This document shows, piece by piece, positions 2,993-25,305 of a DNA stretch of 35,094 bases (position 1 is the stretch's first letter; each line of letters opens with the position of its first letter). The DNA lies in the NCBI GenBank assembly GCA_031284195.1, contig JAITAI010000242.1:1-35094 (forward strand), read 5' to 3'. The DNA is from Treponema sp. Its GTDB lineage: Bacteria; Spirochaetota; Spirochaetia; Treponematales; Breznakiellaceae. The notes under the pieces are model-generated. The model was given only the letters and a program-made list of their open reading frames with translations. It was not told the origin of the DNA and made no database searches. Made by a program: the position numbers and the translations under genes.

Positions 2993-3007
2993 ATTTTTCC
3001 TTTTTTT

Positions 3008-3241
3008 CTCTTACTTCCTATCCGGCTTAGTAACTAAACCCGGCGTCCTAATAGGTGTTTTCTCTTGCTTTCTATCCGGCCTTATGGACTAAACCCAGCG
3101 TCCTCCAGTTTTCCCTTACTTCCTATCCGACCTTATTAACTAAGTCCAGCGTCCTAGGAGGTGTTTCTCTTACTTCCTATCCGGCTTAGTAACTAAACCC
3201 GGCATCCTAGGAGGTGTTTTCTCTTGCTTCCTATTGGGCTT
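3008..3241. repeat. tandem repeat, 54-bp unit, 4 full copies plus a partial fifth, in the argB-argD spacer
   Basis: The CTT(A/G)CT unit starts at 3010, 3064, 3115, 3169 and 3223 (periods 54, 51, 54, 54). Each unit carries a 22-bp near-palindrome CCGGCTTAGTAACTAAACCCGG and an AGGAGGTG ... CTTCCT complementary pair. Confidence 0.9.
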
Positions 3242-3328: not shown

Positions 3329-4213
3329 TTACCCAGCTTCAATCATGGTACCGATCCCCCCATGGGTAAAAAGTTCGATAAGCAAGGCATGGGGAAAACG
3401 TCCGTCAATGATATGGGCCTTCTTGACCCCCCCCTCCAGGGCAAGACTGCAACAATCCGTCTTGGGGATCATACCTTTACTCATAATCCCCTCTTTTCTT
3501 AGCGCTGCCAGTTCTGTGTTCGTGATCACTTTGATAAGGGAATCCGGGTCATGGACATCCCGGAGTAGGCCCGGTACATCGGTCATAAGGAGGAGTTTCT
3601 CCGCCTCCAAAGCCACTGCGATCCGGGCTGCGGCCATATCCGCGTTGATGTTAAGGGCATGTCCCGTGGCAGCTCCTATACCCAGCGCAACCGAGGAGAC
3701 CACCGGAATGGCCCCTGAATGTAATATCCCCTCCAAAACCGAGGTATTCACGGTTTCAATCTCCCCTACTAAGCCCAGATCCTCATCCTCTGTACCAAGC
3801 TGTTTGGCCTGGAGCAGCCCCCCGTCAATACCGCAAATGCCTATAGCCTGCCCCCCTTGTTGCTGAATCAGAAAGGTAATGTCCTTATTCACCTTACCGC
3901 AGAGGACCATCTGCACGATTTCCATGGTCTCTTCATCGGTATACCGAAGCCCCCGGACAAAACGGCTCTCTTTACCCAGCGCCTGGAGCATGGCTTCAAT
4001 TTCCGGGCCTCCTCCATGGACCAGCACGGTCCTGATGCCTACACAGCTCATGAGGATCACATCCTGCATCACCGCTGCCTTGAGGTCGGCATGGATCATG
4101 GCATTCCCGCCGTACTTAACCACCATGGTCTTACCCTGGTAGCGCTGAATATACGGTAAGGCGTGAACCAGAACCGCTGCCTGGTCAGCATAGTTGTTAT
4201 CCCTATCCTTCAT
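3329..4213 (-). CDS. argB: acetylglutamate kinase
   Basis: 294 aa. Contains VVKYGGNAM, LVHGGGPEI, NINADMAAARIA and a C-terminal amino-acid kinase fold signature. Confidence 0.92.
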   Translation of the reverse strand: MKDRDNNYADQAAVLVHALPYIQRYQGKTMVVKYGGNAMIHADLKAAVMQDVILMSCVGIRTVLVHGGGPEIEAMLQALGKESRFVRGLRYTDEETMEIVQMVLCGKVNKDITFLIQQQGGQAIGICGIDGGLLQAKQLGTEDEDLGLVGEIETVNTSVLEGILHSGAIPVVSSVALGIGAATGHALNINADMAAARIAVALEAEKLLLMTDVPGLLRDVHDPDSLIKVITNTELAALRKEGIMSKGMIPKTDCCSLALEGGVKKAHIIDGRFPHALLIELFTHGGIGTMIEAG

Positions 4214-4257
4214 TAGGTTTAGGTATACCCTATTTCTCAGGGTTTGTGCAATATTTA

Positions 4258-4809
4258 TCAGAGCATATTCAAGATAAACGCAGAGGAATTACTATTTCCA
4301 TACAAAATGAAGACTTGGTTAAAATAGGGAACCGCAAGTTCAATTTGCTTATTCCTTATACAACCTGGACGCCGGAGTTCGGAACCAGGACATCGAAGTT
4401 TAGAACGTGGATATCTGAGTTCAGAGTATGGAAATTGGAGTTCGGAGTATGAAAATCGGAGTTCAGAACTTGGACACCGGAGTTCAGAGTAGGGACATTG
4501 GAGTTCGGAGCATGGACATCGAAGTTTAGAACGTGGACATCGAAGTTCGGAGTATGAAAATCGGAGTTCAGAGCATGGACATCGAAGTTCAGAACATGGA
4601 AATTGGAGTTTAGAACATAGACATCGGAGTTCAGAGCATGGAAATTGGAGTTCAGGACATGGACATCGGAGTTCAGAACATAGACATCGGAGTTCGGAAC
4701 ATGAAACTCGGAGTTCAGAACATGGACATCGAAGTTTAGAACGTGGATATCGGAGTTCAGAGCATGGAAATGGGAGTTCGGAGCATGGACATCGAAGTCT
4801 GGAATCCAC
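4258..4809 (-). other. repeat-encoded ORF (about 20 heptads of the type RCPCSEL); coding status doubtful
   Basis: Open only because the 21-bp unit lacks stops in this frame. GTG start at the array edge with no Shine-Dalgarno sequence. Only the SEL tripeptide is conserved; the other four positions change non-synonymously. Confidence 0.2.
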
Positions 4810-4814
4810 AGATG
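4374..4814. repeat. minisatellite: 20 full plus 1 degenerate copies of a 21-bp unit (consensus GGAGTTCAGARCATGGACATC)
   Basis: Units counted by hand start at 4374, 4395, 4416 ... 4773, exactly every 21 bp. There are no indels but many point substitutions. The array has no spacers, so it is not a CRISPR array. Confidence 0.95.
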
Positions 4815-4858
4815 GGGCCTGCCCGTGGCCGCCCAGGGTTCTGCATTTACTTTTGGAA

Positions 4859-4933
4859 TTCTTTATAGAATAAGGAATTACCTTTCCACAGATACATGGG
4901 AGGGTAATACGTAAATCCTTATTCTATAAAGAA
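4859..4933. repeat. 18-bp perfect inverted repeat with a 39-nt spacer in an AT-rich intergenic region
   Basis: TTCTTTATAGAATAAGGA at 4859-4876 pairs with TCCTTATTCTATAAAGAA at 4916-4933. Confidence 0.8.
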
Positions 4934-5328
4934 ATATACCGTTACATGCAGGAGTCATGGCATCTACTGGACATTTTAGTATAAATCTTTTTATTATAGA
5001 AATAGGACTACGAGTAAAAAGGTATTTTATTTTTATATTTGAGGTTGTTTTAAAACTGAAGTTTTGAAACTGGCTCTATTACCGTGAGACGTTCCCAATA
5101 CTTCAATTTGTGGGAAAGCCTCGATATTAAGAAGTGTATGGTCATAAGCAGCGGCGATAATTCTCTTTATGAAGGATGCTTCTGAGGGAATCCAAAAATC
5201 TCATTTTTCTTTTCATCCCTTATCTTCCATGAAGCAAGGGAGTAGCGTATCGGCAGGATTGATAAGGTAAAAAACGAACCCTACACTAATCACTGACCAT
5301 AAGGTCATACCAAGAGGAGGTATTTTGG

Positions 5329-6643: not shown

Positions 6644-8380
6644 ATGCCTGATGCACTTGAGGATGATGATCACGCGAAACTCATCGCCCTGCGCAAAGAA
6701 GCCAAGAAGCTCAACCGGCAGATCGAGTTCCTACAACGGATCATTGAACGGAATAGGAGCATCATTGCCGCTAAAGCCAAGATGAATACGGTTCTCAGCA
6801 CTGAACGGGCAAAGCAGGATAGTTACATGAACCTGGTCCTCGAAAACAGCCCGGATATTATTCTCCTCTTCGATAAAAACAGTTGTTTTGTATACTGCGC
6901 TGATGTATTTCTCAAAAGGACCGGTATCAAGAACGCGGCCTTTATCAACGGACGGCACTACCGGGAGGTCTTTGGAAGGTTCATTGCTCCCCAGTTGCTT
7001 GATGAAATCACCGCAGCTTTTCAAAAGGGGATTACCGAGCGTTGTTCCACGGTGATTGAACAGATTATTGATATGGGGGATGGGATACCCTTGAATTACA
7101 AGATTCACTTTACCCCCATGTTTGACGGGAACGGAGCCCTTGAAGGTTCCTTCGCCCTGTTTCATGATTTGACCGAGGTGTTGAAGGCGAAGCAGAACGC
7201 GGAACAGGCCAATCTGGCCAAATCGAATTTTCTTGCCACGATGTCCCATGAAATACGGACCCCCCTCAACGCCATCATCGGTATGACCGGCCTGGCCAAA
7301 GCTGCCCAGGGTATAGAGCGCAAAGATTATTGCCTGGCCAAGATCGAAGGGGCCTCGGCCCATTTGCTGGGGCTTATCAATGATATTCTAGATATGTCCA
7401 AAATCGAAGCGGATAAGTTTGAGCTTTCCTATACGGAATTTGACTTTAAAAAGATGCTGCACCAGGTGATTGATGTACTTGCCTTCCGGCTTGATGAAAA
7501 GAAACAGCACCTGGTGGTCAAGGTGGATGAGCATATCCCCCCAAGGCTTGTTTCCGATGAACAGCGGTTTGCCCAGATTATTACTAACCTCTTGAGTAAT
7601 GCTACTAAGTTTACCCCCGATGAAGGGGTCATTACCATTGAGGCGCGGAAGTGCGATGAAATCGAGGGGCTTTGTACCTTGGAAATACAGGTGTCTGATA
7701 CGGGTATTGGAATTTCCCCGGAACAACAACCCCGGGTCTTCAATTCCTTTGAACAGATAGACAGCAGCATTTCCCGAAAATACGGCGGTACCGGACTGGG
7801 GCTGGCGATCAGCAAGAAAATTATAGAGATGATGCACGGGCATATCCGGGTTGAATCTACACTGGGTCAAGGGGCTTCCTTCATTTTTACTATACAGGTG
7901 AAACCGGGCAGCGCTGCTACCGATGCAGCAGGGTCAATCGGTGCGGGATCAGCGGAAAACACGAAAAGCATGGAAACCCAGAACGATCTCATAGGGTGTT
8001 TTAGCCAGTACCGGATGCTCTTAGTAGAAGATATTGACCTTAATCGGGAAATCGTTTCATCTGTGCTGGAACCCACCAGGCTTACCATAGATGAAGTGGA
8101 AAACGGGAAAATTGCCTATGAGCGGTTCATCGCCGTTCCTGAAGCCTATGATGTGATCCTCATGGATATCCACATGCCGGAAATGGATGGGTATGAAGCC
8201 ACCAGACTCATCAGGGCCTTTGATCATCTTCGGGCAAAGACCATTCCCATCATTGCCATGACTGCCAATGTGTTTCGTGAAGACCTGGAGCGGTGTTTCC
8301 AGGCCGGTATGAACAGCCACTTGGGAAAACCCCTCAATCTAGATGAACTGTTGGCTACTTTACGCCGGTATTTACGGTGA
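6644..8380 (+). CDS. soluble hybrid sensor histidine kinase (coiled coil-PAS-HisKA-HATPase_c-REC)
   Basis: 578 aa. H-box [15 protein letters not shown]-box [11 protein letters not shown]-boxes DTGIGI and [12 protein letters not shown]-terminal receiver [12 protein letters not shown]...[14 protein letters not shown]...MTANV...GKP. No transmembrane segment. Confidence 0.9.
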
Positions 8381-22451: not shown

Positions 22452-24311
22452 ATGAAAACAGTACGACTTACGATGGCCCAAGCATTGCTGCGTTTTTTAG
22501 ATAATCAATATATCGAAGTAGACGGGGAAGAAATAAAATTTGTAGCCGGAATTTTCGGTATATTCGGGCATGGCGTGGTAGTTGGACTTGGAGAGGCTTT
22601 AGCTGCGGGCGATCAGGGCCTGCGCTTTTATCAGGCTAAAAATGAGCAGGGTGGGGCCCATGCGGCTATGGGATTCGCCAAGCAGCACAAGCGTCGGCAG
22701 ATCATGGCGGTATGCAGTTCCATAGGTCCGGGAGCCCTCAATATGGTAACTGCCGCAGGAACTGCTTCGGCAAACCATATCCCGGTGCTGTTTTTACCCG
22801 GGGACGTGTTTGCCTGCCGTCAGCCGGATCCGGTGCTGCAGCAGATTGAAAACCCGGTGGACTATACCGTAAGCGCCAGCGATGCATTCCGGGCGGTGAG
22901 CCGTTACTGGGATCGGGTGAACCGGCCGGAACAGCTCATGACCGCCCTGATCAACGCCTTCAGGGTCTTGACGGATCCTGCGGAAACCGGGGCGGTTACC
23001 CTGTCTCTTCCCCAGGATGTGCAAGGGGAAGCCTGGGATTACCCAGAGGCGTTTTTAGCCAAACGGGTACATCACCTAGAACGCCGGCCTCCGACACAGG
23101 GCCAGATCCAGCGGGCCTTGGGAATGCTCAAGGCTGCCAAGAAGCCCCTGGTGATCTGCGGTGGGGGAGCCGGGTTCTCCGGGGCAGGCCCCGCATTGGA
23201 ACAGTTCTGTACGGCCTATCACATCCCCTTTGGAGAAACCCAGGCAGGCAAGGGGAACATCCTATGGGATCATCCCTATAACCTTTCCGGTATTGGTACT
23301 ACCGGCAGCTTGGCGGCAAACCGCCTCGCCAAAGAGGCGGACCTGATCATAGCGGTGGGTACCAGGTTGGGGGACTTTACCACCTGTTCCAAGTGGCTTT
23401 TCCAGAATCCTGCGTGCCGGATCTTGGGGATCAACATCGCTCCCTTTGACGCTTACAAGATGAACGGTGAACCTATCATTGCGGACGCCAAACTGACCCT
23501 GGAAGCCATGAACGCCGGCGCATCCCCTTACCGGTCGGATTGGGGTGGACGGATCCAGGAGGTTCGAGCCGAATGGAAGGCAGAGGTAGACCGGCTCTAC
23601 CAGGAAGAAGATCCCCTTGCCCTTTCCCAAGTACGGGTCTTAGGAGAACTCAACGACCGGCTTCTCCCTTCGGATGGGATCGTGGTGTCCGGTTCAGGGT
23701 CCATTCCCTCGGATATGCAGCGGGTATGGCGGGTTAGAACCAAAGGTACCTACCACATGGAATACGCCTTTTCCTGTATGGGCTATGAAATTGCCGCTGC
23801 CTTAGGGGTTAAAATCGCCCAGCCGGATAAGGAAGTGGTAGCCTTAGTAGGGGATGGGGCCTATACCATGCTCCACACCGAACTGTTGACCGCAGTACAG
23901 GAGCGGAAGAAGATCATCGTGGTGGTCCTGGATAATGCAGGGTTTCATTGTATTGATAACCTGCAGCATAGCCAGGGGATCGTCCATTTTGGCAATGAAT
24001 GGAAGACCCGGGATGTCCAAAGCGGGCGTTTGGAAGGGGCTTCTATGCAGGTGGACTACGCTAAAAACGCCGAAAGCTGGGGGGCTTTGGGTATTCGGGT
24101 GCGAACCCTAGAAGAACTCCGGGCAGGGGTAAAGCAGGCCCTGGCAGCTTCGGGACCGGTGGTGATCGATGTTAAGGTCAGCCCTAAGTCCATGACCCAC
24201 GGGTATGAAAGCTGGTGGCGAGTTGGAACGGCTCAAGTATCCGCCAATCCTGAAGTAGTGAAGGCTGCCAACCAGATGGCAGCGGAACTTGCCAAGGCGA
24301 GAACCTTGTAA
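22452..24311 (+). CDS. iolD: 3D-(3,5/4)-trihydroxycyclohexane-1,2-dione acylhydrolase (ThDP enzyme)
   Basis: 619 aa. N-terminus MKTVRLTMAQALLRFLDNQYIEVDGEE is typical of IolD. ThDP motif GDGAYTM...LDN. Confidence 0.9.
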   Translation: MKTVRLTMAQALLRFLDNQYIEVDGEEIKFVAGIFGIFGHGVVVGLGEALAAGDQGLRFYQAKNEQGGAHAAMGFAKQHKRRQIMAVCSSIGPGALNMVTAAGTASANHIPVLFLPGDVFACRQPDPVLQQIENPVDYTVSASDAFRAVSRYWDRVNRPEQLMTALINAFRVLTDPAETGAVTLSLPQDVQGEAWDYPEAFLAKRVHHLERRPPTQGQIQRALGMLKAAKKPLVICGGGAGFSGAGPALEQFCTAYHIPFGETQAGKGNILWDHPYNLSGIGTTGSLAANRLAKEADLIIAVGTRLGDFTTCSKWLFQNPACRILGINIAPFDAYKMNGEPIIADAKLTLEAMNAGASPYRSDWGGRIQEVRAEWKAEVDRLYQEEDPLALSQVRVLGELNDRLLPSDGIVVSGSGSIPSDMQRVWRVRTKGTYHMEYAFSCMGYEIAAALGVKIAQPDKEVVALVGDGAYTMLHTELLTAVQERKKIIVVVLDNAGFHCIDNLQHSQGIVHFGNEWKTRDVQSGRLEGASMQVDYAKNAESWGALGIRVRTLEELRAGVKQALAASGPVVIDVKVSPKSMTHGYESWWRVGTAQVSANPEVVKAANQMAAELAKARTL

Positions 24312-24420
24312 CTCTGGGGGATGGGGAGGATGTCTTCTTGCATCCCCTAAAGGCTTGTAATAAAGACCGGAGAATTTTGAAAAAAGATCGGAGAATTTTC
24401 CAAAAACATAAGGATAAAAA

Positions 24421-25305
24421 ATGGAACCAATTCACCTTGGGATAGCTCCTATAGGCTGGACCAACGACGACCTTCCTGAACTGGGCGGGGAGATTTCCTT
24501 TGAACAATGCCTCAGTGAAATGGCCTTGGCCGGGTTTGTGGGGACTGAAGTGGGGAATAAGTACCCCAAAGATCCAGCTACCCTCAATAGAGCCCTGCAA
24601 CTCCGGGGCCTGACCATTTGTAATGCCTGGTTCAGTTCATTTTTGACCACTAAGCCCTATGAGGAGGTGGAAGCTGCCTTCATTGCCCACCGGGATTTTC
24701 TGTATACAGTAGGCGCCCGGATCATCGGAGCAGCAGAACAGGGTCATTCTATCCAGGGCCAAGCCAAACCCATCTTTGAGGCTAAGCCGGTTTTTACTGA
24801 GGAGGAATGGCGCCGTCTCTGCGAGGGCCTTAACCGCTTAGGAAAAAGGGCTGCAGAAAAGGGGATGCACCTCACCTATCACCACCACATGGGAACCGGA
24901 GTGCAGACCGCAGATGAAATCGACCGGCTTATGGAAAACACCGATCCTCACCTGGTGGGGCTCCTCTACGATACCGGGCATCTGGTGTTCTCTGGGGAGG
25001 ATCATCTAGCGGTCCTGGACAAGTGGATAGGCCGTATCGGTCACGTGCACCTCAAGGACATGCGGGCCCCGATGCGGGAAAAGGCGAAGCGTGAAAAATG
25101 GTCCTTTCTCCAGGCGGTGAAGGCCGGGGTCTTTACCGTACCAGGAGACGGCTGCGTGGATTTTGTCCCGGTTTTCAATGCGCTCAAGGAAGCAGCGTAT
25201 ACAGGCTGGTGGGTGGTAGAAGCAGAGCAAGATCCTGCCAAGGCAAACCCGCTAGAATATGCTATTAAAGCGCGAAGGTATATTAAGGAAAAAGCCGGTA
25301 TCTAG
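24421..25305 (+). CDS. iolE: myo-inosose-2 dehydratase (xylose-isomerase-like TIM barrel)
   Basis: 294 aa. LGIAPIGWTNDDLPELGG N-terminus, HVHLKD and WWVVEAEQDP. Confidence 0.9.
   Translation: MEPIHLGIAPIGWTNDDLPELGGEISFEQCLSEMALAGFVGTEVGNKYPKDPATLNRALQLRGLTICNAWFSSFLTTKPYEEVEAAFIAHRDFLYTVGARIIGAAEQGHSIQGQAKPIFEAKPVFTEEEWRRLCEGLNRLGKRAAEKGMHLTYHHHMGTGVQTADEIDRLMENTDPHLVGLLYDTGHLVFSGEDHLAVLDKWIGRIGHVHLKDMRAPMREKAKREKWSFLQAVKAGVFTVPGDGCVDFVPVFNALKEAAYTGWWVVEAEQDPAKANPLEYAIKARRYIKEKAGI

Follow-up and report, generated by a model that had tools for sequence, protein, structure and literature searches.

A probable lineage-specific minisatellite of 21-bp units between argB and a FIST-domain gene in a Treponema contig

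Bacterial intergenic minisatellites, or variable-number tandem repeats (VNTRs), are represented by the loci of multiple-locus VNTR analysis (MLVA) and by the mycobacterial interspersed repetitive units (MIRUs) of Mycobacterium tuberculosis, and they are among the described systems closest to the subject of this report, an array of 21-bp units between argB and a FIST-domain gene in Treponema sp. (contig JAITAI010000242.1, of which a stretch of 35,094 nt, the window, was analyzed; all coordinates are those of the window). Other systems invite comparison on single features: plasmid iterons and centromere-like arrays (P1 incA, F sopC, R1 parC), the sponge RNAs of CsrB/RsmZ type with their many GGA motifs, and the short tandemly repeated repetitive (STRR) sequences of cyanobacteria, heptanucleotide tandem repeats reportedly described by Mazel et al. 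in 1990. Literature searches on the motif, on 21-bp bacterial repeats, on Treponema repeats and on the QMCE01 contigs considered below turned up nothing specific except BrickBuilt of Porphyromonas gingivalis, one of the miniature inverted-repeat transposable elements (MITEs), which has a 23-nt minisatellite inside it (Klein et al. 2015, PMC4596501). BrickBuilt contains 1-22.8 copies of its unit, is always intergenic, and has a leader and a tail with inverted-repeat ends, some copies lacking both; promoter activity has been shown for it, and the elements are transcribed (PMC4596501).

The array in the window has much in common with the VNTRs, i.e., head-to-tail intergenic repeats of 10-100 bp, presence in one lineage, and variants that are spread by duplication, while MIRUs differ from it in being longer and often located within operons. 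A head-to-tail unit repeated beyond chance and a non-coding location were both found. The array is probably a lineage-specific, non-coding intergenic minisatellite that belongs to a repeat class dispersed in Treponema and has no conserved function at this locus. As such it is an ordinary kind of feature, neither a new protein nor a plasmid-like binding array.

A preliminary description of this DNA had claimed an indel-free array of 20 units of 21 bp, followed by one degenerate unit, at 4374-4814. The claim was reproduced by Tandem Repeats Finder (TRF), which reported 4362-4798 with a period of 21, 20.8 copies, 76% matches, 0% indels and a score of 440, and by cutting the sequence every 21 bp from 4374, which yielded 20 in-register units with 0-5 mismatches each relative to their consensus. 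The majority consensus, GGAGTTCAGAACATGGACATC, in which position 11 is split between 11 A and 9 G, agrees with the one given earlier, GGAGTTCAGARCATGGACATC. Within the window the core GRAGTTYRGA was counted 18 times, always inside the array, compared with 0.75 expected from shuffled sequences, and three cores at 21-bp spacing were observed 12 times, with an expectation from shuffles of 0. The parts of the array are as follows.

4353-4373, no strand assigned: left junction, holding a partial unit (..AACCTGGACGCC)
4374-4793, no strand assigned: 20 in-register 21-bp units, plus-strand consensus GGAGTTCAGA(A/G)CATGGACATC, the plus strand being G/A-rich
4794-4814, no strand assigned: degenerate 21st unit, GAAGTCTGGAATCCACAGATG, with 12 mismatches

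The units diverge from the consensus by ~14%, through 58 differences that comprise 44 transitions (76%), 14 transversions and no indels, and since the same variants recur across units these collapse to at least 20 independent substitution events. The absence of indels is weak evidence of constraint, because the independent events are few and related arrays are mostly indel-free as well. The variant GAAGTTTAGAACGTGGA(T/C)ATC was indeed located at units 2, 8 and 18 (4395, 4521 and 4731), and the higher-order duplication that had been read from it was confirmed in part, units 1-4 and units 17-20 being 89% identical, compared with ~77% at other lags. The palindrome GTTCNGAAC was also correctly noted, its full form occurring in only ~6 of the 20 units. 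That GGAGTTC is conserved likewise held; that it is the only conserved segment did not, as TGGA.AT in the second half of the unit is nearly invariant too. The units abut, with no spacers between them, which sets the array apart from CRISPR arrays.

The comparison of orthologous loci was decisive. The divergent argB/FIST arrangement is kept in four relatives, in which ArgB is 87-91% identical: a Logan assembly (L125), Hollandina sp. SP2 (L249) and two JGI metagenomes (L250 and L251). Their argB/FIST spacers measure 530, 535, 518 and 455 bp, respectively, versus 1115 bp in the window, and the 21-bp array was found in none of the four. Two insertions set the window spacer apart from these loci: the array, of 441 bp, and a palindrome of ~124 bp that is separate from it. 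The 160 bp adjacent to argB align well with those of the relatives, as do the FIST promoter-like site and its leader. The segments flanking the array are listed here.

4214-4352, minus strand: argB upstream region, ancestral sequence outside the repeat, conserved in L125, L249, L250 and L252
4839-4962, no strand assigned: palindromic insertion of ~124 bp, a long hairpin with CTGCAT(T/G)TAAC-type ends, arms at 4822-4881 and 4911-4970
4968-4997, plus strand: promoter-like site TGGACA-N18-TATTAT of the FIST/histidine-kinase operon, conserved in relatives

Exactly at the point where the array starts, three of the relatives hold a single unit-like sequence, TGAGTTTAGAACAACGAATGAG in L125 and L250 and TGAATTGGGAACAACGAATGAG in L249. 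The left junction is orthologous to CCCCAGAT(A/G)C(G/C), which in the relatives precedes that one unit-like sequence, and the GGAATCC of the degenerate unit 21 corresponds to CAAATCC in the relatives and marks the right junction with ancestral sequence. Because of the unit-like sequence at the start point, the array would appear to have grown in place from a resident proto-unit, and in-place expansion in the window's lineage is the most likely history; otherwise an ancestral array would have to have shrunk to a single unit in each of the others. Assembly collapse in the relatives is unlikely, since four independent assemblies agree. Arrays of this class number one in the 35-kb window and none in ~80 kb from close relatives, and a scan of a viral collection for the repeat produced 0 matches. 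The spacers of this clade are repeat-bearing generally, as seen in the 54-bp and 53-bp arrays between argD and argB and in the repeats upstream of the FIST gene in the related contig L121.

A search of genome collections for the repeat, which had been proposed in the preliminary description, bore fruit as regards the family, which is dispersed across many loci; an array-specific 28-mer had no match in the metagenome collection. Scanning the metagenomes for two GGAGTTCNGARC cores 21 bp apart, with pure heptamer arrays excluded, produced at least 120 loci, and among the matches listed these mostly had periods of 21, 42, 63 or 84 bp and few or no indels. The class nearest to the window unit, GGAGTTCNGAACNNGGNNATC, was concentrated, again among the matches listed, on ~25 QMCE01 contigs, which were also the source of the individual units nearest to those of the window. 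LigA encoded on one QMCE01 contig is 70% identical to proteins of "MAG: Treponema sp." entries (MAG, metagenome-assembled genome), placing it in a Treponema lineage, and arrays sharing the same core are present in two named termite-gut Treponema MAGs as well, L014 and L063. Each of the 23 Treponema-class arrays that were examined is intergenic.

In QMCE01 the repeat resides in a mobile element. The arrays, of ~6 to 58 units, lie between a conserved leader (..GGAGGTGAATCAAAAAGTATGATAAGGAAAGGCAGCGTGAAGTATCCTCGCACATAGCAGTTC) and a conserved tail of ~270 nt (ending ..GGTATCATACTTTTGGAAACACCTCC), and the ends of the element are imperfect inverted repeats of 25-30 bp (GGAGGTG..AAAAGTATGATA) with short AT-rich target duplications. 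By its sequence organization this element, ~390-730 bp or more in length (loci L134, L193, L197, L216, L229 and others; in L229 at ~3858-4566), is a MITE that encloses a 21-bp minisatellite. Its leader-array-tail layout is that of BrickBuilt, and the likeness extends to the arrays themselves, which in both cases are spacer-free and of short period (23 nt in BrickBuilt and 21 nt here), have conserved and variable unit positions, vary greatly in copy number (1-22.8 and, in QMCE01, ~6-58), and are intergenic, tens to hundreds of bp from coding sequence. The differences are in the unit sequence, the period and the host phylum. The QMCE01 element thus indicates that such composite elements are not confined to Porphyromonas. 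In some of its copies a second small element with terminal inverted repeats (TIRs) is nested in the leader, and the tail has a faint likeness to C5 DNA methyltransferases at their N-terminus (Pfam E = 0.12), a hint only.

The window array differs from both BrickBuilt and the QMCE01 element in having no leader, tail or TIR, and apparently grew from its proto-unit. An nhmmer search with the QMCE01 leader and tail gave no match in the window outside the array, and no inverted repeat bracketing the array was found. As neither leader nor tail is present, the array is taken as a bare member of the class and not as a copy of the MITE. The palindrome of ~124 bp just to its right, missing from all relatives compared, is a different matter. 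The hairpin predicted for 4800-4990 has an energy of -65.9 kcal/mol (z = -5.4), with G-U pairs favoring the plus strand, and the insertion may be a small MITE in its own right; no second copy was found in the sequences examined. The idea that array and hairpin together form one MITE was rejected, given the single-copy hairpin, the lack of bracketing inverted repeats and the missing QMCE01 leader and tail.

How might such an array have arisen? A segment of ~21 bp, single-copy in related species, would have been tandemly amplified in this Treponema/Hollandina lineage, by slipped-strand mispairing or by unequal recombination in the unit register; an in-register mechanism would account for the exact 21-bp period with point variants copied around, as in the similarity of units 1-4 to units 17-20. 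The array adds 441 bp between the argB upstream region and the promoter region of the FIST operon, along with ~11 hexamers, TGGA(C/A)A, that resemble a -35 element. It is probably near-neutral, any effect on the neighboring promoter regions being incidental, and at the argB/FIST locus itself it would seem to matter little. It is best masked as a repeat, it probably causes contigs to break in related assemblies, and it could serve as a strain-typing marker for the uncultured Treponema/Hollandina lineage.

Several observations weigh against a near-neutral, lineage-specific minisatellite. With ~14% divergence the units are fairly diverged, suggesting that the array is not very young or that divergence of the units preceded its assembly. 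Length polymorphism at the level of strains is what marks a VNTR, and the copy-number comparison here is one between related species, i.e., an array in the window and at most one unit at each of the four orthologous loci. The window array has no MITE ends, and it is unit similarity that ties it to the MITE family. The Treponema-class arrays lie in 7 divergent spacers, 11 co-directional spacers and 0 convergent ones, and in 9 of the 11 co-directional pairs the GGAGTTC strand is the sense strand (p = 0.03); the two observations hint at some interaction with transcription. Finally, the palindromic core recurs across phyla; selection by the search pattern may have contributed. Replication-strand composition was rejected as the source of the array orientation, the GC skew of the flanks agreeing with it at 13 loci and disagreeing at 10, and MITEs with promoters of their own, or with co-transcription, typically have a biased orientation too. 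Taken together, the signals from orientation, palindrome, GGA content and folding are modest, and they are outweighed by the absence of the array at all orthologous loci, the lack of an Rfam match, and a conserved FIST promoter-like site that is placed downstream of the array.

Among the other readings, the one that survives best is that the units are phased sites for a dimeric DNA-binding protein on GTTCNGAAC (GAGTTCNGAACTC in related arrays), with a regulatory, titrating or nucleoid-organizing role for argB/FIST. The exact period of 21 bp, two helical turns, without indels is what such an array would have, and its core is partly palindromic; in the related arrays the palindrome extends to GAGTTCNGAACTC in positions that were not forced by the search, with TC at positions 13-14 in 5 of 22 classes versus 1.4 expected (p = 0.01). 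The array lies, moreover, upstream of both divergent promoter regions, and the family avoids convergent spacers. Against these stand the four orthologous loci, none of which has the array although the flanking regulatory sequence is conserved, the small share of units with the full palindrome, and the lack of a candidate binding protein or a par or rep gene nearby. The occurrence of the same repeat in a MITE of variable copy number elsewhere is better explained by selfish spread than by a tuned operator array, and overall we consider a protein-binding role unlikely. The specific suggestion of an iteron- or centromere-like array, made in the preliminary description, fared no better. Its ~20-bp direct repeats in helical phase are shared with P1 incA and the other plasmid arrays, but no rep or par genes were found among the scanned window ORFs, the 20 copies are diverged and not conserved in relatives, the context is chromosomal and housekeeping, and the dispersed family behaves as a mobile or selfish element in another Treponema lineage.

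An alternative at the level of RNA was also considered, in which the plus strand is transcribed, either separately or as a long 5' leader to the FIST operon, and the repeats serve, for example, as a multi-site decoy that draws off a protein binding GGA, such as CsrA, or affect processing or stability in the way of other MITE-derived leaders. The 441 nt hold 37 GGA triplets on the plus strand and 1 on the minus strand, a plus-strand density of 84 per kb where the remainder of the window has 24 per kb; this abundance of GGA on a single strand is what makes the array resemble the CsrB/RsmZ RNAs. Folding of the plus strand is better than that of its shuffles (z = -5.6), unlike that of the minus strand (z = -1.0); across the family the strand that reads GGAGTTC usually has the sense of the gene downstream, a weak promoter-like site is present within the array at 4534-4561, and BrickBuilt elements are transcribed and promoter-carrying (PMC4596501). 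However, the fold z-score is to be expected of a self-similar repeat rich in G and U, and the GGA triplets are not consistently placed in predicted hairpin loops. Neither the window (at the gathering threshold and with E up to 10) nor the related loci had a match in Rfam, no terminator was found after the array and no convincing promoter before it, the conserved FIST promoter-like site lies downstream of it, and the array is not conserved in relatives. Whereas sponge RNAs have a defined promoter and terminator, conserved presentation of GGA in hairpins and conservation as such, the window array has none of these, and an RNA-level role seems improbable.

A bolder proposal looks beyond the spirochaetes. 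The first scan of the genome collection used a core that is also satisfied by pure heptamer arrays and so says little on the window array itself; the matches listed were mostly (GGAGTTY)n and spanned many phyla. Among them (L001-L120) were (GGAGTTC)n and (GGAGTTT)n arrays, often at contig ends, in Nostoc, other cyanobacteria, Bacteroidota, Acidobacteriota, Verrucomicrobiota, Synergistota and others, as well as same-core 21-bp arrays in Chitinophaga (L019 and L093), Oscillatoria and Nostoc. The Chitinophaga unit, GGAGTTCGGAACTCGGACAGC, matches unit 1 of the window at 18 of 21 positions. The window 21-mer resembles three diverged heptamers (GGAGTTC, AGAGCAT and GGACATC), and GGAGTTY arrays with periods of 7, 14, 21, 42, 63 and 84 bp are common in Nostoc and in other phyla among the matches listed; by analogy with the STRR sequences, a heptamer origin of the window unit may be put forward as a hypothesis. 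Unlike them, the window array has no 7-bp period according to TRF, and the published STRR sequences are different. The GGAGTTCNGAAC core is common to arrays of distant phyla with periods in multiples of seven, and the Treponema arrays also have a sense-strand bias, which, if it reflected function, would point to an overlooked class of evolvable regulatory DNA. On this proposal, 21-bp arrays with the palindromic GAGTTCNGAACTC core, together with the related GGAGTTY heptamer arrays, would be a functional class of phyla that include cyanobacteria, Bacteroidota, Acidobacteriota and Spirochaetota, the core being recognized as DNA or RNA by a conserved factor and the arrays being placed in sense orientation upstream of genes as tunable regulatory modules. 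The window array would be a new recruit to this class, acting on the FIST two-component operon or argB, and we regard the whole notion as very improbable.

The remaining reading concerns a protein, and was answered by tests of coding potential. The reading frame in question is as follows.

4258-4809, minus strand: open reading frame (ORF) of 183 aa with a GTG start and heptads of the RCPCSEL type, without a Pfam match; judged a by-product of repeat composition

This Cys-rich ORF, its GTG start at the edge of the array with no ribosome-binding site, and a second minus-strand frame without stops had all been described before and were all verified. The sequence upstream of the GTG, GGCAGGCCCCATCT, contains no Shine-Dalgarno motif, and the second minus frame is equally open because the plus strand has no TTA, CTA or TCA in those phases. 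The plus frame SSEHGHR has a stop and no start codon. Variation by codon phase (15, 23 and 20) has no three-base periodicity (chi-square p = 0.43). In the test for synonymous bias proposed earlier, the mirror frames CPCSELR (minus) and SSEHGHR (plus), in which position 8 takes the third place in a TCN codon, had a synonymous fraction of 0.38 versus 0.25-0.26 in simulations (z ~2), and 62% of the changed codons were non-synonymous. Among 76 related arrays no frame is always open, openness following the composition of the consensus, and a larger ORF spans the array in 0 of the 23 Treponema-class arrays. HMMER searches of 1.84 billion representative proteins returned 674 matches to the heptad ORF. 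The six of highest identity are low-complexity repeat ORFs, with heptads of the WFPSELR, TQNSELR and GPRSEVR type (xxSELRx-like, with differing residues) and no non-repeat domain in common, and they look like translations of similar DNA repeats. That the ORF is translated into a Cys-rich (RCPCSEL)n protein is scarcely credible: its 183 open codons and the slight synonymous excess in two phase-equivalent frames are set against all of the above, and such a gene would also run head-on into the argB upstream region and be missing from the loci of the relatives. From these comparisons the heptad "protein" appears to be an artefact of the repeat, with no coding role supported, and the ORF should not be annotated as a gene. 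The earlier preference for DNA-level function or a hypervariable minisatellite over a protein was therefore well founded as regards the minisatellite and the rejection of a protein, by the lack of codon periodicity, the low-complexity protein matches and the absence at four orthologous loci, and was not upheld as regards an iteron- or centromere-like binding array.

A few lesser candidates were disposed of quickly. The core appears to share 10 nt, GGAGTTCAGA, with an Illumina adapter or primer; an adapter artefact was rejected in view of the divergence of the arrays, their 21-bp periodicity and the unique sequence around them. Inspection by eye for likeness to a tRNA T-arm, an ArgR box or a LexA box revealed none that fits. 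A link to repetitive extragenic palindromes and their associated transposases (REP/RAYT) was discarded as well, no Y1 transposase gene being present in the window and only the array of L014 adjoining a truncated Y1_Tnp ORF. That array, in a termite-gut Treponema MAG (L014 3151-4330), has 32 units with the same core and immediately follows the truncated ORF, which is of the IS200-like Y1 transposase type. Direct repeats of the 3' end of that ORF (GTTTAGTAGACGATG.GGTGTCAGA..) stand on both sides of the array, which also contains sub-blocks of different unit variants.

The location of the array between divergent argB (AA_kinase in Pfam) and a FIST_N/FIST_C gene was as previously described, the gene orientation having been checked. 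Pfam scans of 20 window ORFs, with four more read from the orthologous genes of L121, identified argD, argB, the FIST_N/FIST_C protein and a hybrid histidine kinase in the immediate neighborhood, and elsewhere products of arginine biosynthesis, two-component signaling, sugar and inositol catabolism, and glycolysis; among the scanned window ORFs no par, rep or phage genes were found, again as stated before. Exact-sequence searches with the FIST and ArgB proteins of the window returned no match. Among named entries, the nearest homologs of both, at 84-88% identity for FIST and 87-91% for ArgB, are from "MAG: Treponema sp." and "Hollandina sp. SP2", which we take to be termite-gut-type spirochaetes.

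The FIST gene has upstream features of its own. The site at 4968-4997 would be a promoter, and T(G/A)GACA-N18-TATTAT is followed by a leader of ~330 nt to 5328, the last 170 nt of which are highly conserved in 7 relatives. In the predicted consensus structure the U/C-rich UCAUUUUUCUUUUCAUCCCU pairs with the Shine-Dalgarno and start region; compensatory change was seen in only 2 pairs and there was no Rfam match, and the leader may be one for translational control. In L121, which has a FIST protein 88% identical and no argB within 1 kb of the FIST gene, positions 1-500 hold different repeats, 43-bp ones that include GC-rich hairpins and, at the contig end, (GCCGTGA) x 18. Several related contigs stop a short way upstream of the FIST gene, as they would if repeats interrupted the assemblies.

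Other tandem repeats are present in the window. The argD-argB spacer (3004-3241) contains a 54 bp x 4.5 array with a higher order of 105 bp, and Hollandina sp. SP2 has a homologous 53 bp x 5.0 array (L249, ~7003-7265) in the same place; the argD-argB spacers of L251 (159 bp) and L252 (42 bp) have no repeat. Unlike the 21-bp array, this minisatellite is thus common to two lineages. An unrelated 21-bp repeat of 2.1 copies, AAAGACCGGAGAATTTTCAAA, is situated at 24362-24406, between the gene of a thiamine pyrophosphate (TPP) enzyme (22452-24311) and the next gene (24421-25305).

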